Positions 1,563-64,000 of a stretch of DNA of 64,000 bases are shown one piece after another; the stretch's first letter is position 1, and every line of letters starts with the position of its first letter. The stretch is from contig NW_027362767.1 of the NCBI RefSeq assembly GCF_046119375.1, positions 425,754,001 through 425,818,000 of the forward strand. Reading direction: 5' to 3'. The translations under genes were made by a program, and so were the position numbers. The notes under the pieces were generated by a model. The model was not told the origin of the DNA, ran no database searches, and was given only the letters and a program-made list of their open reading frames with translations. This DNA comes from Phyllobates terribilis. Taxonomy: Eukaryota.

Positions 1563-17938
<16,376 letters not shown>

Positions 17939-31600: not shown

Positions 31601-34600
31601 GCTTCACAGAATTTTATAATGTTGAAGTGTGAAAATAAAAAAAACACATTTTTAAACACAAAACTGCTACTTTAGCCTCAAATTTTTAATTTTCACAAGG
31701 GCAGCCAGAAAAAATGGACCCCAAAATGTGTTGTGCAATTTCTCCTGAGCACGCTGATACCCCATATGTGGTGCAAAGCCACTGTTTGGGCGCACGGCAT
31801 GGCTTGGAAGGTAAGGAGCGCCATTTGACTTTTGGAATGGAAATTTGACTGGAATGGATAGCGGACGCCATGTTGCATTTGGAGAGCCCCTGAGGTGCCT
31901 AAACAGAGGAAACCCCCAACAAGTGACCGAATTTTACAATCTACTCCTCTGTATAAATTAATCTAGTGGTGGGAAAATAAGTAGATAGGTAAATGGTCAC
32001 TAAACCCATAGATGAATTCCCACAGAGGTGTCATTTCTATAATAGGGTCACTTCAGGGGGGATTATGCTGTTCTGGCACTTTTCAGAGTACCAGAGCTAA
32101 AGAATCCCCCCTGAAGTGACCCCATTTTGGAAATGAAACCCCTCTGGGAATTCATCTATGGGTTTAGTGACCATTTTAACTCAATGGATGATTTCCAGAA
32201 ACAAGCACGCAATGGAAGGTTTAGATTCTGGAGAACCCCCCCTGGAAATTAAGTGAGCTCTACTCGAATGTGTCATTCACTAAATGAACCAAATGTTTGA
32301 ATGACAAATTGGGATACATTTTTACAGTTTAAAAACGTGGTTCTGTGTGGAAGATTTTAAAGCAGTCAGTGACGCATAAGGCTGGCAATGATGGGCATTG
32401 TGGGCAATAGTAGCGGGTATCACGCCTCATTCCTCTCTTAGTACATACACGACATCTTTTCTGGGGGTTCCTTCTTGTTTCCGTTGCTGGAATAAGTGCA
32501 ATAAAATGTCGCTCAGTGAGTCTTTTCACATCCTCAGATTCTAATGGATGAGCGGGGCTAACACTTTGAAAGACAAGATTTTCAATTACCTTTTCTTGAT
32601 AATCAAGAAAAGGATCTGAATTTCCTGCTTCTTTGTACAACACAAAAGAATTGTATGTGGCCACCTGAAACAAAGAAATAACCAACTTTTTATACCAGGT
32701 ATAGGACTTTCTTGATACCTGGTATGGCTGTAGAACCTGGTCTGCAAGGTCCACACCCCCCATGTGTTTGTTGTAGTCAATGACTGACACAGGTTTTTGC
32801 TTCGGAGTGGTGGATCCTAGTTCTACAGTGGCCCTTGTGGCATCTGTGTGGATCGAGCTGAGGACAAAAATATCCCTCTTATCCCTATATTTCAGGGCAA
32901 GCAGCTCTCCGTTGCGTACAGCCCCTGACTGCCCCTTTTGAAACTTTTGGTTGACCAATGGTTGTGGAAACCCCTGACGGTTTTTACAGATGGTCCCACA
33001 AGCCCCGATGTTGTGTTCAACCAGACTTTTAAATAGGGGTATGCTGGTGTAATAATTGTCCACATATAGATTGGAGCCTTTTTGAAAAAATGGACTTATC
33101 AGCTCCCAAACAATTTTTCCAGATGTCCCCAGATAAGTAGGGCATCCTGGTGGGTTTAGTTGGCTATCTTTCCCCTCATATATGCAGAAAGCGGATGTGT
33201 ATCCGGTTGAACTTTCGCACATTTTATAGATCTTTATTCCAAACCTTGCCCTTTTAGATGGGATAAATTGCTTGAGGTGCAGTCTTCCTTTGAATTTTAC
33301 AAGGGACTCATCTATAGAAATATCTTGTGTTGGGGTGTAGAGGCTTAAGAATTTTTCTGACAAATTTTCAATGATGGGTCTAATTTTATATAACCTGTCA
33401 TGTTCTGGGGCATTTCGGGGCAGGCATTGACTATTGTCGTTAAAATGCCAAAACCGCATGAGCATTTCATAACGGGTCCTAGGCAGAATGACTGAAAACA
33501 TAGGGGTGGCTTGAACAGGGTGGTTGGACCAGTAGGATCGAATGCTCAGTTTTTTAACAAGCCCCATGGCAAATGTAAGTCCTAAAAATTTTTTTATTTC
33601 CGGGACATTAGTTGGTGTCCATAAATTTGCCCTAGCATAGTAAGAACGGGGATTCTGGCTTATGAATTGGGACGCGTATAAATTTGTTTGCACGACAATA
33701 TGCTCTAGCAAGCGGTCTGTAAAAGACAAATTAAAAAAATGAATTGGTCCAAAATCTTCCACCTGCACATTTATACCAGGAGTGGCGTTGAAATCAGGGC
33801 TGAATGGAGCAGCCGAATCCGAAGCCTCCCATCTGGGAAATGCTAGATCATGTGGCAACGCCCCTTGTACACTGGCGTGCGCCAATTCACTAGTAGCAGG
33901 GACAGCGCTTGTACTGGGCAGCGTTCCCTGATTTGGAGACGTTTCTCCAGTAGCGCTATTTGCACCTATTGCTGTACTGGTCCTTGGGCTTGAGGATGGA
34001 ACAGAATCACTGCTCATTTCTGAGCTCTCAGTGTCGCCGCTACTAAAACCCTCAAAATCCACATCTCCATCTGAGATTGCGCTGTCATCAGTGTCAGAAC
34101 ACAGCAGGGCATACACCTCCTCTGCGGTATAAGTCTGACGGGCCATTTTATTTTTATATTTTTTGACCGGACTGGACTGACCGGACCGGACTGACCGGAC
34201 TGGACTGACCGGACCGGACTGACCGGACCGGACTGACCGGACCGGACTGACCGGACCGGACTGACCGATCTGACCGGACTGATCTGACCGGACTGACTGA
34301 CTGACTGACTGATCTGACCGGACTGACTGACTGACTGATCTGACAGGACTGACTGACTGATCTGACAGGACTGACTGACTGACTGATCTGACAGGACTGA
34401 CTGACTGACTGACTGATCTGACAGGACTGACTGACTGACTGATCTGACAGGACTGACTGATCTGACAGGACTGACTGACTGATCTGACAGGACTGACTGA
34501 CTGATCTGACAGGACTGACTGACTGATCTGACAGGACTGACTGACTGATCTGACAGGACTGACTGACTGATCTGACAGGACTGACTGACTGATCTGACAG

Positions 34601-43336: not shown

Positions 43337-45424
43337 TAGAAAAATCACAATACAGTCACATGGAAGCTGTCAGGTAACAGACCACTGGGAAAGGAGTTAA
43401 AGCAGATGCTGAGACTTGTAGTTCCCCGGCAGCTAGGTGGGGTCACGTTGCATGAGAACATACATTGTACACAGCGGATGACTGATCACATGAGGTAAAA
43501 TGATCTATATTGTTATATTTGGGGTCCTGTGTACAGCCTGTCTGGGCGCAGTATGGCGGCTGTCACGGGGCGGACAGCTGAGTCCGTGCTCCTCAGTCGC
43601 TGACTGCACAGAACAGGTGGATCCCTACGGGCCTTCTGTCCTCCAGACGGGATCGCGGCATCGTAAACTTCTCGCTTCCCCCTCATCACTGATGGCTTTG
43701 TCTCCCCCTCGTTCTCCTCCTCCGCCGCCATCAATGACAGAGGCCTTTTCTCTCCTCACTCCCCCGTCTCCCTCCTGACTGTCGCAGCTGCTGACGTCTC
43801 TGCCGGCCCAGATCATTGTCCTATTTACAGGATAAGAAAATCCCAGGCAGCCTCCATCGCTCGGCCTTCACCCCCGTGGTGCTGAGGCCTGCGGCCATGT
43901 CCACCCAGCGGGCAGCGAATGCGCACATTACACAGACCACAGGCACAAAACGATGCAATAAAGAAGAGAAGAGGGTTACATGGTACAATATGGGCCTCAA
44001 GATCAGGTCTAGGGCCACAGACACCAGATGAGGCACTAAGACTTTGCTACACCGCCGTCCAACTCAGAGATGGGGCCGACAGTGCGCCCTCATGACCGTA
44101 CACCTTAGACCGGTCGACAGCTATTACTTCCGATCACATGCCTACGTGGTTGAGGAAATAAACGGCTACCAAACACCTGCAGGGGCAAATTATCTCTCGG
44201 GCCACAAATAATGGGGCATGCTGAAATCCAACATGCCCAACCCTTCATTGCCCCAACATGTGACATAAGGAAAGAGTCAGAACACCCCCATAAAGATCAG
44301 ATGGCTGGTCTGCTTCTTCCTACGCGGAGTTTCCAGCTGCCATTCAATCTATACAGCCACCATTTCTCCATCAATCGTTGTTGCATTTCACCTACTCATC
44401 ATTAAAGAAGAAGCTTCGAGGATCCACCTCTCCAGGTGAGAAAACATAAAAGGTCAGCTGAGCCTTCATGTTTTCACTATGGGAAGAGCTAAGTATCCAG
44501 TGTTCAGAAGAGTCATGAGGCCCCCATAAGCATTCGATCATCCTGCAAAAATTTTAATCCAAAGAGTATGGAGGCCAAAGCCAAGTAAAAGACATAGTCT
44601 GACCAGGTGACAAAAGCAGCACCCGTGAAACCCGATATGGCCGACAATGGTAGCCTTCAACCAATTACTTCCCATCCTTGAAATTTAGCATTATGCGACA
44701 CCCTATAAAATGAATTGGTGACTATTTAGGACACAGATTAGGCAGAGTTTGCCACCAGCCACGTTTTCCTTTAGTCATTGATGACCCATTCTGAAGTAAA
44801 AGTCACAAAAAGGAAGAGAAAAATGTAAACAATACTGAATCCTGATCACAACAATGTGACTGATGGGACGCGAGCGCCAAGCTCCACAATGACTGACACT
44901 CAGCGAATATTCAATTGCGGGACACGGTCCAACAATGGTGGCCACCGATCTAACACCAGGCCGAGACCTCCAAGAGAAAGGTTTTGGAATTGGAACGTCT
45001 CAGTCAAAGTTCAATAAAGCGAATAAGTGTGACCAAAGAAATCATCAACCACAAAGAGGTTTCCACGAACAAGGGAGGATCTGCATTACATCCATCGACG
45101 GAGGTAAACGTGCTGGAATATTCGCTACGCAGCACGCCCCAGGGCGAGAAACAAGACTCCAACACTCCAAATACCATGAAAAGGGTCTATGATTTCTGTT
45201 CAGCTCAGAGTTAAAAAAGTACTGAAGACATTCATTCATTTGATAATGCAAAGTTCAAAGCTGCATTCCGAATTCTGCTGGTTGTTATGGGAAAGAGTCA
45301 GCAAACTTGTTGACAGATCCACCCCAAACAGTTTAGTAGACTACATTAGAGTTTATATTTACTATAGCAGATGTATTGTACAGAGCCTGGCGATCTGGTG
45401 ACCTAGAATGTGAATCACCAGATA

Positions 45425-46368
45425 AGTAATGTATGTACACAGTGACTGCACCAGCAAAATAGTGAGTGCAGCTCTGGAGTATAATACAGGAGGTAACTCA
45501 GGATCAGTAATGTAATGTATGTACACAGTGACTGCACCAGCAGAATAGTGAGTGCTGCTCTGGAGTATAATACAGGATGTATCTCAGGATCAGTACAGGA
45601 TCAGTAATGTAATGTATGTACACAGTGACTGCACCAGCAGAATAGTGAGTGCAGCTCTGGAGTATAATACAAGAGGTAACTCAGGATCAGTAATGTAATG
45701 TATGTACACAGTGACTGCACCAGCAGAATAGTGAGTGCAGCTCTGGGGTAAAATACAGGATGTAACTCCGGATCAGTAATGTAATGTATGTACACAGTGA
45801 CTGCACCAGCAGAATAGTGAGTGCAGCTCTGGAGTATAATACAGGAGGTAACTCAGGATCAGTAATGTAATGTATGTACACAGTGACTGCACCAGCAGAA
45901 TAGTGAGTGCTGCTCTGGAGTATAATACAGGATGTATCTCAGGATCAGTACTGTAATGTATGTACACAGTGACTGCACCAGCAGAATAGTGAGTGCAGCT
46001 CTGGAGTATAATACAAGAGGTAACTCAGGATCAGTAATGTAATGTATGTACACAGTGACTGCACCAGCAGAATAGTGAGCGCAGCTCTGGGGTAAAATAC
46101 AGGATGTAACTCCGGATCAGTAATGTAATGTATGTACACAGTGACTGCACCAGCAGAATAGTGAGTGCAGCTCTGGAGTATAATACAGGAGGTAACTCCG
46201 GATCAGTAATGTAATGTATGTACACAGTGACTGCACCAGCAGAATAGTGAGTGCTGCTCTGGAGTATAATACAGGATGTATCTCAGTATCAGTACAGGAT
46301 CAGTAATGTAATGTATGTACACAGTGACTGCACCAGCAGAATAGTGAGTGCAGCTCTGGAGTATAATA
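45425..46368 (-). repeat. 86-bp satellite array A, ~11 copies
   Basis: Unit gtaatgtatgtacacagtgactgcaccagcagaatagtgagtgcagctctggagtataatacagga...; ORFs at an 86-nt period. Confidence 0.95.
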
Positions 46369-47594
46369 CTCAGTAGAGGATTTTTGAGGCAATGTATGCA
46401 CGCCGTTGGCTCCATCTATATACAGACTACAGATGACGCAGTTATTACTCATCCTCACAGGCAGTAGACATGTTTATTCCTCTGTGGTAAACTCTACAGG
46501 AAGTCAGTGACGTGTTACAGGGTTTGCTGCTCTGAAGAAACAGGAAGTCCCTGGTGATTGTGACACTCCGGGGGCAGCAGGACCAAAATAAGGAGATGGT
46601 GACCAGTGTCAGGACAACACAGAACAATCAGTCTTCAGCGCTACTTAAAGGGGCGCTGGATCTATAGCTTAGATTTATCTCCATGTGCTGGAAGTAGGCT
46701 GAGCTATTGCTCCCTGTAATCAGCCAGAATAAGACTGATCCAGGGATTAGGCTGCTGGGAATGAATGTGGTGTGTGAGGTAATTGCAGCGACTCGTCATT
46801 ATTCCACTGAGCTGTATGACCATGGAAAGTGCCAGGGCGCAGGTCCCTGTGGTAATGCAGTGTAATGGAGGAATCAGGTGTGACTGGTACCTGGCCCCAC
46901 TGACTGCTGGGAAATATATACCTGATATCTCTATACATATATATGGTGGTGAAAAACTGCTGTAAATGCCTGAGCACCCACAGCAGCCAATCAGAGATCA
47001 GTTTTTATTTCAAAACCTGACCTGGAGACTTCAAACAAGGATTCTTATTGGTCGCTATGGGCAACGAGGCCTTGTTCTGTCAAAGACCATACAATCTATT
47101 ACCATTATATTGGGTGCGTCTATTTTAACATATGGCGCATCTTGTACGAAGCAAAAAGACGTTTCTCCTTTTAGTAAAGTGTTTTTCTAAAGACATATGG
47201 CAGCAGTCAATCAGAATGCTCCTTTTGCTCACAAAAGGGCTTCTGATAAATGAGAGCTGAAATCTGATTTGTACTTGTGTGTAGCAACCAAACATGGATA
47301 AAACCCGACCAGATGCAGCTCCAGTAAGGGAGAAAGTTTTTAAAAACTCCTATAGAAAGTCAGATATCTCCGAAATAATTCATGACAGCGGGAGCGCGGC
47401 GACGTGATTACAATTAGCCATAGGCACAGTGCTTTCTAGGAATCCTCTAAGAAACAATGAAAAGCTTATTTATTTAGGGCTTATTCACACTTATATCGGA
47501 AAATAGGGATCAAATACTTCTGAGGGCTAAAATCCAATGCCTAATGCAGCGTCCGAGGTGTGGAGAAGTTCAAAGCCCGCCATAAATAAAAGTC

Positions 47595-48215
47595 ATGTCC
47601 CGCCCCGCCACCAGGCGCTGCACCGAGCGCGGGTCTCCCCGCCCCACCACCAGGCGCTGCACCGAGCGCGGGTCTCCCCGCCCCACCACCAGGCGCTGCA
47701 CCGAGCGCGGGTCTCCCCGCCCCACCACCAGGCGCTGCACCGAGCGCGGGTCTCCCCGCCCCACCACCAGGCGCTGCACCGAGCGCGGGTCTCCCCGCCC
47801 CCCCAACACCAGGCGCTGCACCGAGCGCGGGTTTCCCCGCCCCACCACCAGGCGCTGCACCGAGCGCAGGTTTCCCCGCCCCACCATCAGGCGCTGCACC
47901 GAGCGCAGGTTTCCCCGCCCCACCATCAAGCGCTGCACCGAGCGCAGGTTTCCCCGCCCCACCATCAGGCGCTGCACCGAGCGCAGGTTTCCCCGCCCCA
48001 CCATCAGGCGCTGCACCGAGCGCAGGTTTCCCCGCCTCTCCATCAGGCGCAGGTTTCCCCGCCTCTCCATCAGGTGCTGCACCGAGTGCAGGTTTCCCCG
48101 CCCCACCATCAGGCGCTGCACCAAGAAAAGATTTCCCCGCCTCTCCATCAGGCACTGCACTGAGTGCAGGTTTCCCCGCCCCACCATCAGGCGCTGCACC
48201 GAGCGCAGGTTTCCT
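47595..48215. repeat. 36-bp GC-rich minisatellite, ~17 copies
   Basis: Unit ccccgccccaccaccaggcgctgcaccgagcgcgggtct-like; 12-aa periodic ORFs. Confidence 0.95.
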
Positions 48216-48639
48216 TAAAAGGTGTACAGCAAAGAAAAAATTTAGCAAAGGGCTCAGATATTTCCTCTGACTTGAGGCCTCCCAGGTCACGGCTTTACAC
48301 AGTAAACCCCATTCAGCCAGTAATTGGCTAATATGGGTCCCTCCGGAGGTCAGTGATTGGCTCATCGGCCATTTCTTAGCATTTCCTGTGCGTTGTGACA
48401 CGACCAGAAAGTAAAGACGGCAGGGACACAGCAAACTTTGGAAAGAGAATGACGACAGAGCAGTTAGCCTATTAGTTTTATTTTTTGGAAACCACTCAGC
48501 CTTTTGCCAAAAACTTTTTCCCCTACTTGGCAGCCCCTTAAAGTGTCATAACTGTGTACAGGGGATATCTGATAACAGAGGTGTAGCTGTAAAGGAGCTG
48601 CGCACCAGAGTCCCTTCCCTCCCTCACATTTGGTGACTT

Positions 48640-49485
48640 AGGCTATGTGCCCACGATGCAGAAATGCTCAGGAATTTTTCCTGAGCGTTTCTGCATCTCC
48701 CTGGCAGATGCGGATTGTGCATGCGGATTGTGCATGCATTTTACTGCCAGGGACATGCGGATGTGAAGCGTTCTTCACTTGCATTTCCGCATGCGGGTTG
48801 ACAAGCGCTTTACAAGCGATTTTAGCATCACTTGGAAAGTGCTTGTCAACTTGGTCACACTATAGAAATCCATGAAAACAGCATGGATTTATATACTGTG
48901 ACCGTAAAAAAATAAAAAAGAAGTCTATACTTACCTTCCGATGGCCCCCGGTGTCTTGTTTCCCTCTGTCCCGGCTGCCAGCAGCGCTACACTGAAGGAC
49001 CAGCCGACGTCAGCGTCACGTGACCATGACGTCAGCGCAGGTCCTTCAGTACATCACGAATTGTCGGGAAGGGAGGACGAGCGCACCGGGGTCCGTCAGA
49101 AGGTAAGTATGTATTTATTTTTTATTTTATTCTTTTTTTTTTACAGTACTATGGTACCCGGGTCTGGAGGAGAGTCTCCTCTCCTCCACACCCGGGTACC
49201 ATCCGCACATTGAAACGCATGGAATGTGCATCTACATATACAGTGATGCGTAATCCATGTGTTCTAATGCAAGTCAATTGCGGCAAAAACGCAGCGCTTC
49301 CGCAAAATAATTGGTAGTGCTGCGTTTTTTTCCGAAATGATAATCCGCAGCGGAAACTTCCGCAGCATGTACACAGCACATGCGGATTATCATTGGGGAA
49401 CATGGCAGGCCTTCTACCAAGCGTTTTTTAAGCGTTTCTGCCGCTGCGGAAACGCTTAAAAAAAAGCATCGTGGGCACACAGCCT
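48640..49485. mobile_element. ~850-bp MITE (AGGCT(A/G)TGTGCCCACGATGC TIR)
   Basis: aggctatgtgcccacgatgc...gcatcgtgggcacacagcct termini. Confidence 0.8.
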
Positions 49486-49896
49486 TACACTGGGACCGTG
49501 CTTGGGTCTTCACACTAACAGTTATCAGACAAGATGATATAACACAAACATACAAATCCATCATTAGAACAACTACTAGAATCATATTCCAATATCTCAT
49601 GTGTCTTCTGATATTTGAGGATTACAACCCCCAAGCCTGAGGCTGCACTACTGAGACACTGATAAAAAGCAGCATAAAACGTATCAAGCGCAAAAATGTC
49701 AGAGGCCGTGTGTGGATCCACATTGAAATTCTCACATGGAAAGGATGTCGATATTGTTTAATTCTCAATGACAACACTACATGTCACAAGTCAGCAGTGG
49801 AGCAGCCTCATGTTTGGATCAGTAACTTCAAATGATCAGATCTCTAAAATTAATTACGCCATGCTCACATACATTACATCAATTATCCTCTAGTGA

Positions 49897-51785
49897 GTAG
49901 TATACTCCAGAGCTGCACTCACTATTCTGCTGGTGCAGTCACTGTGTACATACATTACATTACTGATCCTGAGTTACATCCTGTATTATACTCCAGAGCT
50001 GAGCTCACTATTCTGCTGGTGCAGTCACTGTGTACATACATTACATTACTGATCCTGAGTTACATCCTGTATTATACTCCAGAGCTGCACTAACTATTCT
50101 GCTGGTGCAGTCACTGTGTACATACATTACATTACTGATCCTGAGTTACATCCTGTATTATACTCCAGAGCTGAGCTCACTATTCTGCTGGTGCAGTCAC
50201 TGTGTACATACATTACATTACTGATCCTGAGTTACATCCTGTATTATACTCCAGAGCTGCACTAACTATTCTGCTGGTGCAGTCACTGTGTACATACATT
50301 ACATTACTGATCCTGAGTTACCTCCTGTATTATACTCCAGAGCTGCACTCACTATTCTGCTGGTGCAGTCACTGTGTACATACATTACATTACTGATCCT
50401 ATACTGATCCGGAGTTACATCCTGTATTATACTCCAGAGCTGCACTCACTATTCTGCTGGTGCAGTCACTGTACATACATTACATTACTGATCCTGGTTA
50501 CATCCTGTATTACACTCCAGAGCTGCACTAACTATTCTGCTGGTGCAGTCCCTGTGTACATACATTACATTACTGATCCTGTACTGATTCTGAGATACAT
50601 CCTGTATTATACTCCAGAGCTGCACTCACTATTCTGCTGGTGCAGTCACTGTGTACATACATTACTGATCCTGTACTGATTCTGAGATACATCCTGTATT
50701 ATACTCCAGAGCTGCACTCACTATTCTGCTGGTGCAGTCACTGTGTACATACATTACATTACTGATCCTGTACTGATTCTGAGATACATCCTGTATTATA
50801 CTCCAGAGCTGCACTCACTATTCTGCTGGTGCAGTCACTGTGTACATACATTACTGATCCTGTACTGATTCTGAGATACATCCTGTATTATACTCCAGAG
50901 CTGCACTCACTATTCTGCTTGTGCAGTCACTGTGTACATACATTACATTACTGATCCTGCACTGATTCTGAGATACACCCTGTATTATACTCCAGAGCTG
51001 CACTCACTATTCTGCTGGTGCAGTCACTGTGTACATACATTACATTACTGATCCTGAGTTACATCCTGTATTATACTCCAGAGCTGCACTCACTATTCTG
51101 CTGGTGCAGTCACTGTGTACATACATTACATTACTGATCCTGAGTTACATCCTGTATTATACTCCAGAGCTGCACTCACTATTCAGCTGGTGCAGTCACT
51201 GTGTACATACATTACATTTCTGATCCTGAGTTACATCCAGTATTATACTCCAGAGCTGCTCTCACTATTCTGCTGGTGCAGTCACTGTATACATACATTA
51301 CTGATCCTGTACTGATCCTGGAGTTACATCCTGTATTATACTCCAGAGCTGCACTCACTATTCTGCTGGTGCAGTCACTGTGTACATACATTACATTACT
51401 GATCCTGTACTGATCCTGTATTATACTCCAGAGCTGCACTCACTATTCTGCTGGTGCAGTCACTGTGTACATACATTACATTACTGATCCTGAGTTACAT
51501 CCTGTATTATACTCCAGAGCTGCACTCACTATTCTGCTGTTGCAGTCACTGTGTACATACATTACATTACTGATCCTGAGTTACATCCTGTATTATACCC
51601 CAGAGCTGCACTCACTATTCTACTGGTGCAGTCACTGTGTGCATACATTACATTACTGATCCTGAGTTACATCCTGTATTATACTCCAGAGCTGCACTCA
51701 CTATTCTGCTGGTGCAGTCACTGTGTACATACATTACAGTACATATACCAAGTTACATCCAGTATTATACTCCAGAGCAGCACTC
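49897..51785 (+). repeat. 86-bp satellite array B, ~22 copies, opposite orientation to array A
   Basis: Reverse complement of the 45425-46368 unit. Confidence 0.95.
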
Positions 51786-53532
51786 ACTTTTCACAGGGAG
51801 TTTTTTTCAGATATATAATTCAGGAAATGCTCTATTTTGGGAGTTTCTCTTTTCCTGAAGGGCTCTGAACAGCTTTTTGTGCAGCCTTTTGATTGGCCAG
51901 TCCCTAGGTTGGAGCAGGTTCCATCAGACTCCACTTCACAGATGTGACCGCGCTGTATATTTTTTTTCCCACAGGCTTTTTCTTTCAAAAGCTGCAAGTG
52001 GTAAAAACAGTCTCAAGGCTCTGCATGTGAGCACAATATGGATTTCCTATAGAAATTAAAGAAGTTTTCCAGGAATGTTTGCAGAGGATTATGAAGCAGA
52101 TCTGCTCCCAATAACTCTGTGTGTGTACACCACCGTACAGCGACACTCCCTAGGGGGTATTATTACCCTGAACCTAGATCCATTCCCCCTCTGCTGCCCC
52201 CACTAGTGCCGGATTATTGGATGCATATTTAAAATATAAATTCCAGACTATCAGACCACCCGGACCACTACATACCGTACGGAAGGGATTATGTTGTGCG
52301 TTTCCAATGACTATAAGAAGTTGTGATGCCTCTAGCTTCATAGTTACAAGATCGGACCCCCGTCCCCCCAGTACACAACCCCATCCATATTACGAGCTAT
52401 GAGGCTCATTTTCGGGCCGGCCGGTGTTAACAGGCGGACACACGACAACATTTTTTTGGAATTTTTCCTGACACACAAGCTGCAAAAACCGACACATCCA
52501 CGAGACTATGACAATCCCTACGGTACAACGACCTGTATAACACACCGAGAGCCCACATGTGCAGCCTCACACCATAAGGCAGCGTGTCTGGAATCAGCTG
52601 AGAAGTGACTACAACTCCCACCACAAAGCTGAGAGTTGTAGTGCCACAGGTGGCATTGCTCAGGCTATAGGTTTAGTTCCCCTCCCCCCAAACGAGTGAT
52701 ATGTCGTATCCGCCATGACTGACCTGTACAGAGGGTCCCTGGCGGGCTCCGGGCTTCCTGTTGTGCTTCAGCCAACCCTGGGGTGAAAGCAGAGAGAGGA
52801 TTGGAGCCCCTCGCATATGGTACCCCCATCAGCTCCAGCCCTGCCACTATGGGGCACTCACTGTAGCTATTCCCTGCCCACCCCAAACTTTTTACACTGC
52901 CCCCCCCCAAATCCGTACCCATTATGGTTCCCCCCATAAGTTTACAGCTGCACTCCTTGGCCAGCCTATCCTGCCCCCTCCCATTACCTCCTGTACCAAT
53001 GCCAGCAGGGTGCAATCTTCTCTCTCTGCACAATCAGGTACCATCTGCTCCACCTCTTCTCTTTCACTGCCACCCCCCCCAGATGCTGATGTAACGGTCC
53101 ACTCCTACTATAAAAGTAACAAAACGGCCAGTACTAACTGCCTGCAGGGGATGTCGAGAGCCAGGGTGCACCCCAAGAATGGAAATCTGGGGGAAGATGA
53201 GGCCAAATCCAACAGCTGCTGCAAGAAAGAGGCAGGAAAAGGGGGAGATGGAGGCAAGAGAAGAGGGGAGAAGAGCCAGAAGTAATATGGAGGGGGTGAG
53301 GGCACACAGAAGGAAACAAACAGGGAAATGAGAGGGGACACAGCGTATCAATGGCCGAGCAGAGACAGATGACAGGAGAGGGAGACAGCAGGGAAAGAGG
53401 AGGGGGCGGGGAGGGCACAGGACGGCGGCAGATCGGGGGCAGGAGGCCGCGGAGGAGGAGGACGGAGCCCGGTGCCCACTGCTGTCTGTCTGCAGATGGA
53501 GACTCACTGAGAGAGGGAGGAGCCGGCCCAGG

Positions 53533-53551
53533 GCATTGTGGGTAGTGTAGT
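53533..53551 (-). promoter_or_regulatory. ZNF143/Staf-type motif ACTACACTACCCACAATGC just upstream of a minus-strand CA|GTGAGT donor (53507); candidate promoter/first exon
   Basis: Motif resembles ACTACAnnnCCCAnAATGC; GC-rich context. Confidence 0.4.
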
Positions 53552-53620
53552 CCTCATCCCCGCACAGGATTATGGGAGCTCCATCCCTGATGTCTGATGT
53601 GTGCGGTCTGATCTGTGCAG

Positions 53621-56057
53621 CTGCTCACAGCATTAACCCCTCCAGCACCTGCTCACAGCATTAACCCCTCCAGCACCTGCTCACAGCATTAACCCCTCCA
53701 GCACCTGCTCACAGCATTAACCCCTCCAGCACCTGCTCACTGCATTAACCCCTCCAGCACCCGCTCACAGCATTAACCCCTCCAGCACCCGCTCACAGCA
53801 TTAACCCCTCCAGCACCTGCTCACAGCATTAACCCCTCCAGCACCTGCTCACAGCATTAACCCCTCCAGCACCTGCTCACAGCATTAACCCCTCCAGCAC
53901 CTGCTCACAGCATTAACCCCTCCAGCACCCGCTCACAGCATTAACCCCTCCAGCACCTGCTCACGGCATTAACCCCTCCAGCACCTGCTGACAGCATTAA
54001 CCCCTCCAGCACCTGACCACAGCATTAACCCCTCCAGCACCTGCTCACGGCATTAACCCCGCCTGCAACTGCTGACAGCATTAACCCCTCCAGCACCTGC
54101 TGACAGCATTAACCCCTCCAGCACCTGCTGACAGCATTAACCCCTCCAGCACCTGCTGACAGCATTAACCCCTCCAGCACCTGCTCACTGCATTAACCCC
54201 TCCAGCACCTGCTCACAGCATTAACCCCTCCAGCACCTGCTCACTGCATTAACCCCTCCAGCACCTGACCACAGCATTAACCCCTCCCACACCTGACCAC
54301 AGCATTAACCCCTCCAGCACCTGCTCACGGCATTAACCCCGCCTGCAACTGCTGACAGCATTAACCCCTCCAGCACCTGCTGACAGCATTAACCCCTCCA
54401 GCACCTGACCACAGCATTAACCCCTCCAGCACCTGCTGACAGCATTAACCCCTCCAGCACCTGATCACAGCATTCACCCCTCCAGCACCTGATCACAGCA
54501 TTAACCCCTCCAGCACCTGATCACAGAATTAACCCCTCCAGCACCTGATCACAGAATTAACCCCTCCAGCACCTGATCACAGCATTAACCCCTCCAGCAC
54601 CTGACCACAGCATTAACCCCTCCAGCACCTGACCACAGCATTAACCCCTCCAGCACCTGCTGACAGCATTAACCCCTCCAGCACCCGACCACAGCATTAA
54701 CCCCTCCAGCACCCGCTCACAGCATTAACCCCTCCAGCACCCGCTCACAGCATTAACCCCTCCAGCACCCGCTCACAGCATTAACCCCTCCAGCACCCGC
54801 TCACAGCATTAACCCTTCCAGCACCCGCTCACAGCATTAACCCCTCCAGCACCCGCTCACAGCATTAACCCCTCCAGCACCCGCTCACAGCATTAACCCC
54901 TCCAGCACCCGCTCACAGCATTAACCCCTCCAGCACCTGCTCACAGCATTAACCCCTCCAGCACCCGCTCACAGCATTAACCCCTCCAGCACCTGACCAC
55001 AGCATTAACCCCTCCCACACCTGACCACAGCATTAACCCCTCCAGCACCTGCTGACAGCATTAACCCCTCCAGCACCTGCTGACAGCATTAACCCCTCCA
55101 GCACCTGCTGACAGCATTAACCCCTCCAGCACCTGCTGACAGCATTAAGCCCTCCAGCACCTGACCACAGCATTAACCCCTCCAGCACCTGACCACAGCA
55201 TTAACCCCTCCAGCACCTGACCACAGCATTAACCCCTCCAGCACCTGACCACAGCATTAACCCCTCCAGCACCTGATCACAGCATTAAGCCCTCCAGCAC
55301 CTGATCACAGCATTAACCCCTCCAGCACCTGATCACAACATTAACCCCTCCAGCACCTGATCACAGAATTAACCCCTCCAGCACCTGATCACAGAATTAA
55401 CCCCTCCAGCACCTGATCACAGCATTAACCCCTCCAGCACCTGCTGACAGCATTAACCCCTCCAGCACCTGCTGACAGCATTAACCCCTCCAGCACCTGC
55501 TGACAGCATTAACCCCTCCAGCACCTGATCACAGCATTAAGCCCTCCAGCACCTGATCACAGCATTAAGCCCTCCAGCACCTGATCACAGCATTAACCCC
55601 TCCAGCACCTGATCACAACATTAACCCCTCCAGCACCTGATCACAGAATTAACCCCTCCAGCACCTGATCACAGCATTAACCCCTCCAGCACCTGATCAC
55701 AGCATTAACCCCTCCAGCACCTGCTCACTGCATTAACCCCTCCAGCACCTGACCACAGCATTAACCCCTCCAGCACCCGCTCACAGCATTAACCCCTCCA
55801 GCACCCGCTCACAGCATTAACCCCTCCAGCACCTGATCACAGCATTAACCCCTCCAGCACCTGATCACAGCATTAACCCCTCCAGCACCTGCTGACAGCA
55901 TTAACCCCTCCAGCACCTGATCACAGCATTAACCCCTCCAGCACCTGATCACAGCATTAACCCCTCCAGCACCTGATCACCGCATTAACCCCTCCAGCAC
56001 CTGATCACCGCATTAACCCCGCCTGCACCTGATCACAGCATTAACCCCTCCCGCACC
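53621..56057. repeat. 28-bp satellite (cagcattaacccctccagcacctgctca), ~87 copies
   Basis: Directly visible; fades into degenerate attaacccttcc units to ~56500. Confidence 0.97.
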
Positions 56058-57971
56058 TCAGACCTGCAATTCACTTCATTAACCCTTCCTCCATCCCAGA
56101 AATGCATACATTAACCCCTCTTGCACCACAGACGTGTAGCTTCAGGGCGTTAACCCTTCTAGCAGCACAGGTTCTCAGTCTTTGAACATTAACCCTTCCT
56201 GCACCCCAGATCTATACAGTAGTTGCAGCTGCTCCACCTCCCCAATAACCCTTTATACTCCCTGCAGTTTTGTTGCGGTCCCTTTTTTCAGAGTCCGGGG
56301 TCTTGTTAACCCTTTCGCCCCTTGCTCAGATCTCCTCCGATCCTCCATCCTGTGAGTGAGAGCTCGCAGTATAATGCGAGGGCTGCAGCCATAGACAAAG
56401 GTCGGTGCCTGGAGCTATCAATCAAAGGTCATCTCTAATAATCACATGTCCTCCCACTGTCAACGGGAAGTTATGGAGGGAGCGACCCATTAACCCTTTA
56501 TTAACCCTGGGGAGAGACATTATTAGCTCTGACTATATATACTTTTATTTAGTTTTCAGTCGGTAGACTTATATCAAGTCTTGTTTTTTGCGGTACAAGT
56601 TGTACTTTTTATCATCACCATGTTAGAGTTTATACGACTTTCTGATCTTTTTTTGGGAGGCAAAGTGACAAAAAAAACAGCAATTCTGCCATTCTGAATG
56701 TTTTACATTTTGACATTCGCCGCCGTATAGAATTAATATACTTTATTAGTTTGGACAGTTGTGCATGCGGCGATTCCAAATATATATATATATATATATA
56801 CAGTACAGACCAAAAGTTTGGACACACCTTCTCATTTAAAGATTTTTCTGTATTTTCATGACTATGAAAATTGTTCATTCACACTGAAGGCATCAAAACT
56901 ATGAATTAACACATGTGGAATTATATACTTAACAAAAAAGTGTGAAACAACTGAAAATATGTCTTATATTCTAGGTTCTTCAAAGTAGCCACCTTTTGCT
57001 TTGATGACTGCTTTGCACACTCTTGGCATTCTCTTGATGAGCTTCTAGAGGTAGTCACCGGAAATGGTCTTCCAACAATCTTGAAGGAGTTCCCAGAGAT
57101 GCTTAGCACTTGTTGGCCCTTTTGCCTTCACTCTGCGGTCCAGCTCACCCCAAACCATCTCGATTGGGTTCAGGTCTGGTGACTGTGGAGGCCAGGTCAT
57201 CTGGCGTAGCACCCCATCACTCTCCTTCTTGATCAAATAGCCCTTACACAGCCTGGAGGTGTGTTTGGGGTCAATGTCCTGTTGAAAAATAAATGATGGT
57301 CCAACTAAACGCAAACCGGATGGAATAGCATGCCGCTGCAAGATGCTGTGGTAGCCATGCTGGTTCAGTATGCCTTCAATTTTGAATAAATCCCCAACAG
57401 TGTCACCAGCAAAGCACCCCCACACCATCACACCTCCTCCTCCATGCTTCACGGTGGGAACGAGGCATGTAGAGTCCATCCGTTCACCTTTTATGCGTCA
57501 CACAAAGACACGGTGGTTGGAACCAAAGATCTCAAATTTGGACTCATCAGACCAAAGCACAGATTTCCACTGGTCTAATGTCCATTCCTTGTGTTCTTTA
57601 GCCCAAACAAGTCTCTTCTGCTTGTTGCCTGTCCTTAGCAGTGGTTTCCTAGCAGCTATTTTACCATGAAGGCCTGCTGCACAAAGTCTCCTCTTAACAG
57701 TTGTTGAAGAGATGTGTCTGCTGCTAGAACTCTGTGTGGCATTGACCTGGTCTCTAATCTGAGCTGCTGTTAACCTGCAATTTCTGAGGCTGGTGACTCG
57801 GATAAACTTATCCTCAGAAGCAGAGGTGACTCTTGGTCTTCCTTTCCTGGGGCGGTCCTCATGTGAGCCAGTTTCTTTGTAGCGCTTGATGGTTTTTGCA
57901 ACTGCACTTGGGGACACTTTCAAAGTTTTCCCAATTTTTCGCACTGACTGACCTTCATTTCTTAAAGTAAT

Positions 57972-59770
57972 TGTTATGCACACGCCCGGGCTGAGCGGCG
58001 TGTGCGTGTGATTGTAGTGATTCCACTGGACCATGAACCGGAGAGTGCCTGGAGGGGCGTGACTAAGTATCTGGCCGATCCGACCAAGATGGCACGACGG
58101 CATACGACGCCAGTGCACCAGGGAGAAACCGGGCAGAGGGACCAGGTGCTACTCCAGGTCAAACTCCGGACACGGGGGTTGACCCACACAGGGATTACTG
58201 GATCAGGCTGGTTAGGCTGGCGCACAGACTGGAGGGTATAGGCAGGCACGACTGGTATGCAGGCAGGCGGGTAAAGGCAAGCGCAGCTAGAGTGCAGACA
58301 GGGAGGCACTAGCAGGTAGGAACACAGGCGGGATAGGACCCAGTACACACTGGGACTCAGGAACAATACAGGTAGAGGGGTACAGGCAAGCACAGCTAGA
58401 GTGCAGACAGGGAGGCACTAGCAGGTAGGAACACAGGCAGGATAGGACCCAGTACACACTGGGACTCAGGAACAGGCAGGTTAGGCTGGCACAGACTGGT
58501 GGATATAAGCAAACACGGCAGGTATGCAGATGGGTGGATACAGGCGAGTAAGCAGGCAGGGAGGTACTGGCCGAAAGGACGGGCTGGAGCACAGAAAGGT
58601 TAAGACCCAGTACAGACTGGGTCACAGAACCGCAGATGCGGTAGACAACCACAGCAGAGAGGGAACGCCCGAAGCGGTGGGCAAGAACAGAGCAGGACGG
58701 GGCTGCAGGAGCAGCGAGCACAAGCAGGGCAGGACAGGACTGCCGGAGCAGCGGGCAGAAGCAGGGCAGGACAGGACTGCCGGAGCAGCGGGCAGAAGCA
58801 GGGCAGGACAGGACTGCCGGAGCAGCGGGCAGAAGCAGGGCAGGACAGGACTGCCGGAGCAGCGGGCAGAAGCAGGGCAGGACAGGACTGCCGGAGCAGC
58901 GGGCAGAAGCAGGGCAGGACAGGACTGCCGGAGCAGCGGGCAGAAGCAGGGCAGGACAGGACTGCCGGAGCAGCGGGCAGAGGAGTCAGAGCAGGCTAGG
59001 CTGAGTAGGGGGGACAGGGCTCAGTTCACACGGAACAGACAGGAAGGGAAAGGCAGAGCCAGACACCCACAGGGTACTTGCAGTGAAGTAGCGAGTGGAC
59101 CACAAACTCACAAACGGGAGTACAGAGACAACAAGCAGGAGTTAGGTACGAGTTCAGACTCTGCAGAAAAAGGAAGGGAACGGACATAGAGGAAAAACAG
59201 GTAAAGGATAGGAGAGAGTTCAGACTGGAACTGAGTGTACGGAGGAGACCGACACTGCAGCGGGATACAGGAGCGGGTCTGGGAATACGGCCCCCAGAGA
59301 GGCAGGAGGAACAGGCTAGGAGCGTGTTCAGACAGGTCAGACAAGATACAGGAACAGGTCTAGGTAATCGGCCCCTAGAAGGCAGGAGGAACAGGCTAGG
59401 AGCGTGTTCAGACAGGCCTGGAAATACAGCCTCCAGGATAGGCAGACAAGAGAACACAGAACAGGACCTGGCACCTTCAGAGTGCAAGCACACACTGAAA
59501 GAAACACTATGCTCAGGCAGGGATAGAAGGGAGCTGCTGAGCTATATACCAAGTGACAGACAGCAATAGGCTGAGGACGCACAAGGGGTGTGACCCACAG
59601 CAGGTACAAAAGGCAGGAAGTGATCGGGCGCCGCCCTTAAGCAGCAGAAACAGACACAAACAGACAGCATGGAGGGAAGCCAGAGAGACATTCTGGACAG
59701 GAGATCAAGTGCGCCCTCTTGCACAGTGGGAGATGGACCACCATGCAAGGACGCCGCCAGGTATGTTACA
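57972..59770 (-). repeat. 3' LTR (1799 bp; contains 7 x 37-bp repeat at 58722-58980)
   Basis: Direct repeat of 61761-63559 (offset 3789). Confidence 0.95.
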
Positions 59771-61617
59771 GTACCTCCCCCCTTACGCCCCCTCTTCTTC
59801 AGGCCTGCCAGAATCTTCCGCAGGGAATTCGAGGGCCAGTCGTTCACTGGGTTGGAGGGGGACAGAGACTTAAGGGTAATCTCTGCTTCGAGGTACATCT
59901 TGTCAAGCTCACAGGAAGAAATAGACGGGTTATCACGTACATAATGAGGAAAAGTCACTGTCTCTTTGTTATCTGGTGGTATCCCGGAGGATTCAGGAAA
60001 CAACTGGAGGTCCTCCGCCGGGTCAGAAGAGTGCAGAGGCTCAGAGAAAACAACTGCTTCAGAGTACACTAGGTCGGACTCACTGGAGGAAGCAGGCGAG
60101 GTATCGGGTACCGAGTATAGGAAAGTCTCTGTCCATTCACCACCAGGTGGCACCCCGAAGGGTTCTGGAGACAGCTGGCGGTCCTCCGCCTGGTCAGAGG
60201 GGTGTAGAGACTCACGGGTAACCTCTGCTTCAGAGTACACTAGGTCGGACTCACTGGAGGAAGCAGGCGAGGTATCGGGTACCGAGTATAGGAAAGTCTC
60301 TGTCCATTCACCACCAGGTGGCACCCCGAAGGGTTCTGGAGACAGCTGGCGGTCCTCCGCCTGGTCAGAGGGGTGTAGAGACTCACGGGTAACCTCTGCT
60401 TCAGAGTACACTAGGTCGGACTCACTGGACGAAGCAAGCGAGGTATCAGATCCAGGATATAGGAAAGTCTCTGTCCATTCACCACCAGGTGGCACCCCGA
60501 AGGATTCTGAACACAACTGGAGGTCCTCCGCCTGGTCGGAGGGGTGTAGAGACTCAGGAGTAACCTCTGCTTCGGAGTACACTAAGTTGGACTCACTGGA
60601 CGAAGCGAGCGAGGTATCAGGTACAGAGTATAGGAGAGTCTCTGTCCTTTCGCTACCAGGTAGCACCCCGAAGGGTTCAGGAGACAACTGGAGATCCTCC
60701 GCCTGGTCGGAGGGGTGTAGAGACTCGGAGGTAACTACCACTTTGGGGTACCCATTGTCAGGCTCACAGGACGAAGCGGACAAAGTATTGAGTACCGGGT
60801 GTAGAGAAGTCTCTCTCCATTTGTCATCGAGTGGTATCCCGGAGGGTTCAGGAGGCAACAGGGGATCCTCCGCCAGGTAGTAGAGGTGCACAGACTCTGA
60901 GGTAACCACAGCTTTGGAGCATCCTTGGACATGCACACCGGTAAAAGAGAAAGAAGCATCTGATGCCGGGTGCAGGAAGTTCTCCTGTGTGGAGTCTGGA
61001 TGGGCAGAAGTCTCTTCGGCCAGGAGAACTGGTGCACTACCCACGCACATTACCCATTGGGGTTTCTCCGGGATACAGGGAGATGAAGCTTCAGTAGGGA
61101 CTTCAAGGTTGGGGTCAGGAGGTCTCAGGGAGGACAGACCCTGGCGTGACGGCTTGCCTCTACGTCTAGCACGTCTGGACTGCCTCTTGAGGTTGAGAGA
61201 AGTATTCCGGAAAGCGTAGTCACCCTGTGAGGATTCTGGGTGGGCAGTAGTCTCATTGGGCTGGAGGACTATTGCGCTACCCACACACATTACCCGTCGG
61301 GGCTGCTCCGGGATATTGGGAAGTGAAGCTTCAGCAGGGGCTTCAGAGTTAGGGTCCTCGAAGACCATACGAAAGGCCACCAGGAAGGCCTGCAGGTCAA
61401 GGATGACAGGATCCCATGCTTCCCATAGGGGGGTGACCCATTTCAAGGCATCACCCGCTAGGTAGTCAATCATAAAGGCCACTTTAGCCCAATCGGAAGG
61501 AAAATAGAGAGGGTAGGCCTTAAAGTGTAGCATGCATTGCTCCACAAATGCACGACACTGTCTTGGATCCCCATAGTAACGTGGCGGATCCGCAGGAACG
61601 AGGGCTGATAGATCCAT
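59542..61617 (-). CDS. Gag-like N-terminal domain (sushi/RTL/LDOC1-type) fused to 57-aa acidic Ser/Pro-rich tandem repeats, 691 aa
   Basis: PPRYYGDPRQCRAFVEQC..FPSDWAKVAFMIDYLAGDALKW..LQAFLVAFRMVFEDP resembles retrotransposon Gag N-terminal domains. The ORF is uninterrupted, with a 171-nt periodic interior. Confidence 0.8.
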   Translation of the reverse strand: MDLSALVPADPPRYYGDPRQCRAFVEQCMLHFKAYPLYFPSDWAKVAFMIDYLAGDALKWVTPLWEAWDPVILDLQAFLVAFRMVFEDPNSEAPAEASLPNIPEQPRRVMCVGSAIVLQPNETTAHPESSQGDYAFRNTSLNLKRQSRRARRRGKPSRQGLSSLRPPDPNLEVPTEASSPCIPEKPQWVMCVGSAPVLLAEETSAHPDSTQENFLHPASDASFSFTGVHVQGCSKAVVTSESVHLYYLAEDPLLPPEPSGIPLDDKWRETSLHPVLNTLSASSCEPDNGYPKVVVTSESLHPSDQAEDLQLSPEPFGVLPGSERTETLLYSVPDTSLASSSESNLVYSEAEVTPESLHPSDQAEDLQLCSESFGVPPGGEWTETFLYPGSDTSLASSSESDLVYSEAEVTRESLHPSDQAEDRQLSPEPFGVPPGGEWTETFLYSVPDTSPASSSESDLVYSEAEVTRESLHPSDQAEDRQLSPEPFGVPPGGEWTETFLYSVPDTSPASSSESDLVYSEAVVFSEPLHSSDPAEDLQLFPESSGIPPDNKETVTFPHYVRDNPSISSCELDKMYLEAEITLKSLSPSNPVNDWPSNSLRKILAGLKKRGRKGGGTVTYLAASLHGGPSPTVQEGALDLLSRMSLWLPSMLSVCVCFCCLRAAPDHFLPFVPAVGHTPCASSAYCCLSLGI
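59771..59800 (-). promoter_or_regulatory. Polypurine tract of the LTR element
   Basis: GAAGAAGAGGGGGCGTAAGGGGGGAGGTAC immediately before the 3' LTR TG. Confidence 0.85.
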
Positions 61618-61748
61618 CTGGACGGGTGCGTAATTCGCCTGGAACTAGCTAAAGGGGGAAAAAAAATTTATTTATTTTATTTTAATGCATGTATTCGCTG
61701 GAAAAACTTCTCAAAGAGCGAAGGCCGTGGGGCTCAACGGGAACCATG

Positions 61749-61760
61749 GCCTGAGCATGC
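61749..61760 (-). promoter_or_regulatory. Primer-binding-site position: GC-ATGCTCAGGC, complementary to the predicted transcript 5' end (self-priming type)
   Basis: No TGG tRNA-CCA complement at the LTR junction. 10/10 reverse-complement match to GCCTGAGCAT at 63307-63298. Confidence 0.7.
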
Positions 61761-63559
61761 TGTTATGCACACGCCCGGGCTGAGCGGCGTGTGCGTGTGA
61801 TTGTAGTAATTCCACTGGACCATGAACCGGAGAGTGCCTGGAGGGGCGTGACTAAGTATCTGGCCGATCCGACCAAGATGGCACGACGGCATACGACGCC
61901 AGTGCACCAGGGAGAAACCGGGCAGAGGGACCAGGTGCTACTCCAGGTCAAACTCCGGACACGGGGGTTGACCCACACAGGGATTACTGGATCAGGCTGG
62001 TTAGGCTGGCGCACAGACTGGAGGGTATAGGCAGGCACGACTGGTATGCAGGCAGGCGGGTAAAGGCAAGCGCAGCTAGAGTGCAGACAGGGAGGCACTA
62101 GCAGGTAGGAACACAGGCGGGATAGGACCCAGTACACACTGGGACTCAGGAACAATACAGGTAGAGGGGTACAGGCAAGCACAGCTAGAGTGCAGACAGG
62201 GAGGCACTAGCAGGTAGGAACACAGGCAGGATAGGACCCAGTACACACTGGGACTCAGGAACAGGCAGGTTAGGCTGGCACAGACTGGTGGATATAAGCA
62301 AACACGGCAGGTATGCAGATGGGTGGATATAGGCGAGTAAGCAGGCAGGGAGGTACTGGCCGAAAGGACGGGCTGGAGCACAGAAAGGTTAAGACCCAGT
62401 ACAGACTGGGTCACAGAACCGCAGATGCGGTAGACAACCACAGCAGAGAGGGAACGCCCGAAGCGGTGGGCAAGAACAGAGCAGGACGGGGCTGCAGGAG
62501 CAGCGAGCACAAGCAGGGCAGGACAGGACTGCCGGAGCAGCGGGCAGAAGCAGGGCAGGACAGGACTGCCGGAGCAGCGGGCAGAAGCAGGGCAGGACAG
62601 GACTGCCGGAGCAGCGGGCAGAAGCAGGGCAGGACAGGACTGCCGGAGCAGCGGGCAGAAGCAGGGCAGGACAGGACTGCCGGAGCAGCGGGCAGAAGCA
62701 GGGCAGGACAGGACTGCCGGAGCAGCGGGCAGAAGCAGGGCAGGACAGGACTGCCGGAGCAGCGGGCAGAGGAGTCAGAGCAGGCTAGGCTGAGTAGGGG
62801 GGACAGGGCTCAGTTCACACGGAACAGACAGGAAGGGAAAGGCAGAGCCAGACACCCACAGGGTACTTGCAGTGAAGTAGCGAGTGGACCACAAACTCAC
62901 AAACGGGAGTACAGAGACAACAAGCAGGAGTTAGGTACGAGTTCAGACTCTGCAGAAAAAGGAAGGGAACGGACATAGAGGAAAAACAGGTAAAGGATAG
63001 GAGAGAGTTCAGACTGGAACTGAGTGTACGGAGGAGACCGACACTGCAGCGGGATACAGGAGCGGGTCTGGGAATACGGCCCCCAGAGAGGCAGGAGGAA
63101 CAGGCTAGGAGCGTGTTCAGACAGGTCAGACAAGATACAGGAACAGGTCTAGGTAATCGGCCCCTAGAAGGCAGGAGGAACAGGCTAGGAGCGTGTTCAG
63201 ACAGGCCTGGAAATACAGCCTCCAGGATAGGCAGACAAGAGAACACAGAACAGGACCTGGCACCTTCAGAGTGCAAGCACACACTGAAAGAAACACTATG
63301 CTCAGGCAGGGATAGAAGGGAGCTGCTGAGCTATATACCAAGTGACAGACAGCAATAGGCTGAGGACGCACAAGGGGTGTGACCCACAGCAGGTACAAAA
63401 GGCAGGAAGTGATCGGGCGCCGCCCTTAAGCAGCAGAAACAGACACAAACAGACAGCATGGAGGGAAGCCAGAGAGACATTCTGGACAGGAGATCAAGTG
63501 CGCCCTCTTGCACAGTGGGAGATGGACCACCATGCAAGGACGCCGCCAGGTATGTTACA
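61761..63559 (-). repeat. 5' LTR (1799 bp; minus-strand TATATAG at 63337-63331)
   Basis: Direct repeat of 57972-59770; only two substitutions seen (58019/61808, 58541/62330). Confidence 0.95.
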
Positions 63560-64000
63560 GTAATGATGGCCACTCGTTTTTCTTTACTTAGCTGCTTTTT
63601 TCTTGCCATAATACAAATTCTAACAGTCTATTCAGTAGGACTATCAGCTGTGTATCCACCAGACTTCTGCACAACACAACTGATGGTCCCAACCCCATTT
63701 ATAAGGCAAGAAATCCCACTTATTAAACCTGACAGGGCACACCTGTGAAGTGAAAACCATTTCCAGTGACTACCTCTTGAAGCTCATCAAGAGAATGCCA
63801 AGAGAGTGCAAAGCAGTCATCAAAGCAAAAGGTGGCTACTTTGAAGAACCTAGAATATAAGACATATTTTCAGCTGTTTCACACTTTTTTGTTAAGTATA
63901 TAATTCCACATGTGGTAATTCATAGTTTTGATGCCTTCAGTGTGAATGTACAATTTTCATAGTCATGAAAATACAGAAAAATCTATAAATGAGAAGGTGT

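Follow-up and report, generated by a model that had tools for sequence, protein, structure and literature searches.

A pol-less, chromovirus-related LTR retrotransposon family of Phyllobates terribilis with a primer binding site complementary to its own LTR, most likely self-primed

The window analysed here, a stretch of 64,000 nucleotides from Phyllobates terribilis, contains on its minus strand a 5,588-bp LTR retrotransposon of the Ty3/gypsy type that lacks pol and whose primer binding site (PBS) shows complementarity to a site in its own LTR. Reverse transcription of this chromovirus-related element, probably a Tf1/sushi element, is most likely primed by its own RNA, through the predicted first 10 nt, and not by a tRNA, a reading to which we assign a probability of roughly 0.88. 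The tRNA-independent, Tf1-like mode of priming put forward in a preliminary description of this DNA is supported by covariation across related families, a conserved 10-mer, a predicted helix and, in a limited test, the lack of a match to tRNA.

All components of a non-autonomous LTR retrotransposon are present (LTRs, PBS, polypurine tract and target site duplication, TSD; Table 1) and pol is absent, yet the element has been amplified. The two LTRs, 1,799 bp each with TG...CA ends and two differing positions, enclose an internal part of 1,990 bp in which no protease, reverse transcriptase (RT) or integrase is encoded.

The insertion lies in a Tc1-type DNA transposon (domains HTH_Tnp_Tc3_2 and DDE_3; window 56824-57971 and 63560-64000) that has inverted arms at 56824-57072 and 63752-64000 and whose transposase gene is interrupted by the LTR element. 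A target preference for Tc1 elements was considered and rejected: loose contig ends represented the empty site, and the TSDs of other copies varied. Elsewhere, the window holds an 861-aa open frame at 32329-34914 (minus strand) with DDE_Tnp_1_7 and zf-Tnp_2 domains, resembling a piggyBac-like transposase, and minisatellite arrays at 11386-18000, 45419-51792 and 53505-56000 with 14-bp, ~86-bp (containing inverted blocks) and 28-bp units.

Table 1. Features of the LTR retrotransposon and their positions in the window.
Feature	Position	Strand	Remark
5' LTR	61761..63559	-	1,799 bp, TG...CA; 2 differences from 3' LTR
3' LTR	57972..59770	-	own copy of primer 10-mer at 59518-59509
TSD, upstream copy (ATTAC, 5 bp)	63560..63564	-	ATTAC at both element ends
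TSD, downstream copy (ATTAC, 5 bp)	57967..57971	-	
Predicted U3, 252 nt	63308..63559	-	predicted boundary; 235-252 nt in 39/39 measured copies, R-U5 variable
TATA-like box (TATATAG)	63331..63337	-	30 nt before primer site
Predicted self-primer, first 10 nt of RNA	63298..63307	-	exact complement of PBS
TGTT of second duplex	63292..63295	-	predicted pairing with terminal AACA of U5, past a 2x2 internal loop
Predicted R-U5 (1,547-nt loop)	61761..63307	-	C/T-rich; internal tandem repeats of 80, 37 and 109 bp
Splice-donor-like GTGAGT, single in R-U5	62895..62900	-	candidate, from sequence
103-nt U5 segment common to autonomous family F	61841..61943	-	77-81% identity
Candidate U5 arm of third (pretzel) stem	61807..61813	-	could pair with 61746-61740
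9-bp hairpin at U5 end	61767..61794	-	pair probability 0.98-1.0
PBS, non-tRNA	61749..61758	-	2 nt after LTR; exact complement of primer 10-mer
ATG where relatives start Gag	61740..61747	-	21-codon ORF here; also partner arm of candidate third stem
Overlapping AATAAA hexamers, then T/C run and AG	61649..61681	-	poly(A)-signal-like and splice-acceptor-like
691-aa ORF	59542..61617	-	Gag N-terminal part (DUF4939), acidic 57-aa repeats; extends into 3' LTR
Polypurine tract	59771..59800	-	near-identical to polypurine tract of family F

The coordinates given in the preliminary description all proved right: TATATAG begins at 63337 on the minus strand, GCCTGAGCAT occupies 63307-63298 and its complement ATGCTCAGGC 61758-61749. 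Its estimates of ~250 bp for U3 and ~1.55 kb for the loop agree with the 252 nt and 1,547 nt predicted here, and the PBS, which it had described as not of the tRNA type, indeed lies 2 nt (GC) after the LTR. No TGG occurs within 0-5 nt; the first one lies within the ATG, 14 nt downstream. Within the LTR, no complement of at least 7 nt to the PBS region exists except at 63307. By simple arithmetic with equal base frequencies, an exact 10-mer complement at offsets 0-5 would arise by chance somewhere in the LTR with a probability of ~1%, and inside the 11-nt window after the TATA box with one of ~6e-5. As a control, none of 324 downstream 10-mers had an exact complement in its own LTR stretch. Likewise, a complement of at least 7 nt was found in none of three elements with the tRNA-type PBS TGGTATCAGAGC (L140-L142). 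These contrast with the window element, which lacks the TGG-starting PBS matching a tRNA 3' end that is characteristic of tRNA-primed Ty3/gypsy elements.

The base that follows the 10-nt PBS (window 61748, minus strand) is C in 8 of 9 family representatives, and the base preceding the primer site is usually a pyrimidine in the window element and related loci. It is tempting to speculate that this conserved C at PBS position 11, for which the DNA offers no partner, could pair with the m7G cap.

The window element belongs to a large family: a 20-mer spanning the LTR end and the PBS has 8,783 exact matches in the 10.6-Gb genome, and the reversed control has none. We examined 41 copies (the window copy, 20 of the first listed pattern matches and 20 more divergent ones), 39 of which have a readable LTR start. 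In these 39, R-U5 measures 1,031-1,888 nt (median 1,620) and U3 is fixed at 235-252 nt; 38 have an internal part of 1.6-2.4 kb, and the 5-bp TSDs match or nearly match. The PBS is identical in 30 of 30 copies; an exact primer 10-mer is found in 36 of 39, the remaining three having one mismatch. Among 34 distinct copies, column conservation amounts to 0.99 in the primer 10-mer, compared with 0.50-0.76 at positions -11 to -1, 0.53 at +11 and 0.62 at +16 to +40, and rises to 0.85-0.94 at +13 to +15 (the TGTT region). The TATA core is fixed at -30 in the same copies, TAT being invariant at -30 to -28 and TA at -26 to -25. Thus, the primer 10-mer is an island of conservation within the family, with flanks that diverge between subfamilies.

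Many copies have LTR pairs that are 99.6-100% identical, which points to recent amplification. Some copies lie 3.1-4.0 kb apart (G000:C1:880484525-880495300, C1:1144892991-1144896689, C3:645978984-645983175 and others), a spacing that suggests tandem arrays with common LTRs. Three near-identical old copies (L189-L191) have lost the primer site through a deletion after the TATA box of the 5' LTR and are probably DNA-level duplicates of one dead copy.

The preliminary description had named covariation of the two 10-mers across family copies as a test of self-priming; compensatory changes were found across related families and not within the family itself. Related elements were gathered with two LTR-independent profiles (DUF4939 and a Tf2-type SH3), and a subset of 82 loci was fetched. 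The 5' LTR end was located in 62 of them with a pattern in which the first letters of the PBS were constrained and the LTR site was left free, and the other 20 were dropped. The complement in the own LTR is exact in 41 of the 62 loci, has at most one mismatch in 56 and two or three mismatches in 6; a TATA-like motif, searched with a loose pattern, lies 29-35 nt upstream in 55 of the 56 loci with at most one mismatch. Eight distinct PBS 10-mers match their own site exactly, namely those of the window family, F, two G types, D, A, A2/B and E, and copies of family C match at 9 of 10 positions. In a 9x9 matrix, each PBS pairs with its own site at 10/10 positions (C at 9/10) and with foreign sites at 4-9/10, except for A2 and B, which have one common sequence. 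Two or three types of Watson-Crick pair occur at 7 of the 10 positions, while positions 1, 2 and 9 are invariant. Compensatory changes are seen even between close subfamilies (A and A2, the two G types, and L122 within F), and the 10-mer of the window family differs from that of the nearest autonomous family at two positions, both of them compensated. The pairing ends sharply at +1, at a fixed distance from the TATA-like box, an indirect indication that the site may be the 5' end of the RNA. RT identities between the related families range from 64 to 87%, and their loops measure ~0.17-0.95 kb versus 1.0-1.9 kb in the window family. TG(T) at +13 is also present in families D, A, B and E but not in F, G and C.

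Within the family, point variants of the PBS were found in 50 copies (16 and 34, versus ~8,800 copies in total); 36 were fetched, three of these lacked the primer site, and compensation was observed in none of the 33 with a readable LTR site. These variants are about as frequent as those at a neighbouring position (35), and we read them as decay after insertion, since uncompensated changes are what post-insertion mutation is expected to leave; they lend self-priming no support. Taken together, the exact complement, the conservation island, the compensation across families and the clean controls make self-priming very likely.

Folding of the R-U5-PBS region, also proposed in the preliminary description, yielded the expected helix: in a global fold of the window copy it forms across 1.55 kb with a pair probability of 0.98-1.0. 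Past a 2x2 loop it is extended by 4 bp onto the LTR end, and the fold also contains a 9-bp hairpin in U5. The second duplex (TGTT/AACA) has a pair probability of 0.71-0.98, and in three other copies the primer helix reaches 0.73-1.0. When pseudoknot-free folds were computed for representatives of the related families, the primer helix was low or partial in about half of them, some of which chose a U5/AUG stem. Long-range folds of this kind are weak evidence in either direction. A candidate third stem comprises 7 bp over the ATG, and its two central letters are flipped on both sides in family F. Compared with shuffled sequences in two energy tests, this stem is not significant in the window family (p 0.13-0.56); p values below 0.05 were obtained in 4 of 14 and 2 of 12 representatives, respectively. 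A third stem of the Tf1 pretzel is described in PMC10085805.

Based on these data we propose the following course of events. RNA polymerase II would initiate at 63307 or close to it, which is 30 nt past the TATA box, and nucleotides 1-10 of the transcript would pair with the PBS, thereby closing an R-U5 loop of 1.0-1.9 kb; a 2x2 internal loop and 3-4 bp of pairing with the LTR-terminal ACA would follow. On the model of Tf1, a helper RT may cleave with its RNase H after about nucleotide 10 and free a 3'-OH, from which RT would copy the 2-nt spacer and up to ~1.5 kb of U5-R before jumping to the 3' LTR. An autonomous chromovirus would supply RT, RNase H and integrase in trans; of those sampled, family F is the closest. 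Few competing partners are probably present in the loop, which is poor in A and rich in C/T, so that the length of the loop would be free to drift via tandem repeats.

The primer might instead be the 5' end of a second RNA of the element, be it a dimer partner, a short transcript ended at AATAAA or a helper RNA, in which case no 1.5-kb loop is needed. We consider this rather improbable, and it would still be self-priming in kind. It would fit the freely varying loop length (1.0-1.9 kb) and the arrangement of poly(A) signals. Neither AATAAA nor ATTAAA occurs in the LTR of any of 39 copies, and none of 12 hexamer variants was found in the R-U5 of 7 copies or in the LTR of family F; the sole AATAAA hexamers lie outside the LTR, ~80-95 nt after its end and just past the PBS, and are present in 19 of 20 copies. 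Moreover, the family D primer can pair with the window PBS with one G-U (9/10 matches). Against a second RNA speaks that the family keeps its own exact 10-mer and not that of D or F, and that the predicted fold is the intramolecular helix. Beside the AATAAA hexamers, all of 20 copies have an acceptor-like run ahead of the Gag ATG, and a single GTRAGT donor-like site is located in the R-U5 of 37 of 39. These candidate sites suggest that a spliced mRNA may be formed which drops the PBS and the upstream ATG. Among the contig joints listed from public runs none was of the CT..AC kind, which speaks neither for nor against splicing.

It is improbable to a higher degree that the helix is structural or regulatory, with a function in packaging or translation control, and that a host RNA, for example a fragment of a tRNA, serves as primer. 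Long-range pairings between U5 and AUG exist in retroviral leaders, and the stem suggested here over the Gag ATG is of a similar kind. In addition, TGGTTCCC, 14 nt after the LTR, may resemble a tRNA-Glu-type PBS, and the screening against tRNAs covered a T-loop pattern test and 63 Rfam candidates in two clusters. Mature tRNAs end in CCA, so that a tRNA PBS requires a TGG, which is absent here at 0-5 nt; the TGG at +14 is part of the start codon and its continuation varies from family to family. Within these limits, the check for a tRNA match that the preliminary description had suggested favours self-priming: the 10-mer together with the T-loop motif occurs at three sites in the genome (control, two), none of them in a tRNA gene. 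A host primer would furthermore have to track at least eight different PBS sequences, and the helix would block its access to the PBS. An Rfam search over 59700-63600 (E at most 1) revealed no ribozyme or known RNA family, and hence nothing of the kind that defines a retrozyme.

Eight loci on small contigs of the assembly (L136-L143; C3338, C5097, C5240, C5304, C6167, C6528, C6743 and C7377) form a separate RT clade with long LTRs, and the three with a readable LTR end have the PBS TGGTATCAGAGC, which is typical of plant tRNA-Met-primed chromoviruses. They are possibly foreign DNA in the assembly.

That the match is due to chance, or is an inherited relic without function in this non-autonomous family, is hardly credible: uncompensated PBS variants within the family and the descent of its copies, which makes identity alone weak evidence, would be in line with it, but the 10-mer has stayed intact while both flanks diverged between subfamilies, the two differences from the nearest autonomous family are both compensated, and the near-identity of many LTR pairs indicates a family that is still amplifying.

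Self-priming of a pol-less element presupposes enzymes from elsewhere, and kinship points to their possible source; the lack of pol and the need for a helper are not mentioned in the preliminary description. The 691-aa ORF of the window element matches DUF4939 with an E value of 2.4e-6, just under the curated cut-off; a comparison of its Gag piece with solved structures gave no significant match. The truncated Gag (N-terminal piece, window 61330-61617, minus strand) shows dN/dS values of 0.14-0.57 between subfamilies in 15 pairwise comparisons of six copies, which are not independent of each other, and an ORF of at least 500 aa is kept in 32 of 41 copies. The low dN/dS and the preserved long frame indicate that the truncated Gag protein probably has a role. 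No autonomous copy with the LTR of the window family was found among the 41 copies or the 150 best Gag matches, where the longest frame comprises 823 aa. By RT phylogeny, the families with a self-complementary PBS form one clade apart from TGG-type elements (100/100). In family D a single frame codes for Gag, protease, RT, RNase H, integrase, a Tf2-type SH3 and a chromodomain; the best match of the family among solved structures is Ty3, its Gag matches PEG10 (E 1.8e-11), and matches to its RT-RNase H include chromodomain-bearing elements of frogs (up to 84%) and fish. The chromodomain scan covered D, and it was with the Tf2-type SH3 profile that families F and G were detected. In the Gag tree the window element groups with F and G (98/98, with a long-branch warning), and its Gag identity is 45-51% to family F versus 33-41% to others. 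Family F is also similar in a 103-nt U5 segment, a near-identical polypurine tract and CCATGG after the PBS. Judged by architecture and kinship, the window element is likely to belong to the Tf1/sushi group, and we infer that its helper enzymes most likely come from family F, among the families sampled. The 103-nt U5 segment, which is conserved also in L104, L111, L121, L122 and L125, has no match in Rfam, and the rest of the LTR cannot be aligned with that of F; a packaging or recognition signal is a possible function.

Butler et al. are said to have proposed self-priming and a pretzel structure for vertebrate Tf1/sushi elements in 2001. In Tf1, pairing with the PBS involves the first 11 nt of the RNA, and the RNase H cut falls between nucleotides 11 and 12 (PMC7175516). 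Self-priming is presented as a common trait of the Tf1/sushi group, its vertebrate members included, in PMC10085805, PMC6317226 and PMC4600332. As far as these sources extend, the mechanism itself is already known from Tf1 and already predicted for vertebrate Tf1/sushi elements. Like Tf1 and Tf2 of Schizosaccharomyces pombe and Tj1 of S. japonicus, the window element has chromovirus relatives, a PBS complementary to the (here predicted) 5' end of the RNA in place of a tRNA site, and a (likewise predicted) second pairing beside the PBS. Unlike these, it has 10 bp after a 2-nt spacer, a loop of 1.0-1.9 kb and no pol; the third pretzel stem is only suggested in the window family, and its mode of priming is a prediction from the sequence. 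With the vertebrate Tf1/sushi elements (V-clade chromoviruses such as sushi-ichi and Amn-ichi/ni/san) it has in common TG..CA ends, a 5-bp TSD, predicted self-priming and chromodomain-bearing relatives, the Gag of family D resembling PEG10. By contrast, the window element is non-autonomous, with a truncated Gag and acidic repeats, and its family has LTRs of 1.3-2.1 kb without AATAAA, whereas a training set of Sushi LTRs has a mean length of 572 bp and a clear AATAAA (PMC3601003).

The window family also invites comparison with non-autonomous elements of other kinds. LARD/TRIM-type elements have intact LTRs, PBS and polypurine tract without pol, reach high copy numbers and occur in tandem arrays. 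The window family is like them in these respects, its tandem arrays being putative, but it retains a long ORF, of which the Gag part is under purifying selection, and a self-complementary PBS. What looks new is a loop of 1.0-1.9 kb in a non-autonomous family with purifying selection on a truncated Gag; a literature search, with most subscription papers outside its scope, returned no report of the window family or of kilobase self-priming loops. Additional file 1 of Neumann 2019 may list long self-priming LTRs in plants, and given such possible cases we do not claim the longest loop known.

A more far-reaching model is offered tentatively, and in its entirety we regard it as doubtful. The ~8,800 pol-less elements would prime in cis over a loop of up to 1.9 kb, 2-10 times as long as in autonomous relatives, with no poly(A) signal in their LTRs; an intron spanning the PBS would serve as a switch, giving either genomic RNA able to prime or spliced mRNA for the selected truncated Gag, and the C at PBS position 11 may contribute an 11th base pair with the m7G cap.

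According to the sources cited here, bench experiments have demonstrated self-priming in fission yeast; for vertebrate elements it is so far a prediction. The genome of P. terribilis provides a clear comparative case, in which the LTR site has followed each of eight PBS sequences. Because the transcription start site and the cleavage site are predicted to the base, a long-standing prediction becomes testable in a vertebrate. Our findings suggest that a priming loop of kilobase size may be tolerated and that copy numbers in the thousands are in this way within reach of an element that depends on a helper.
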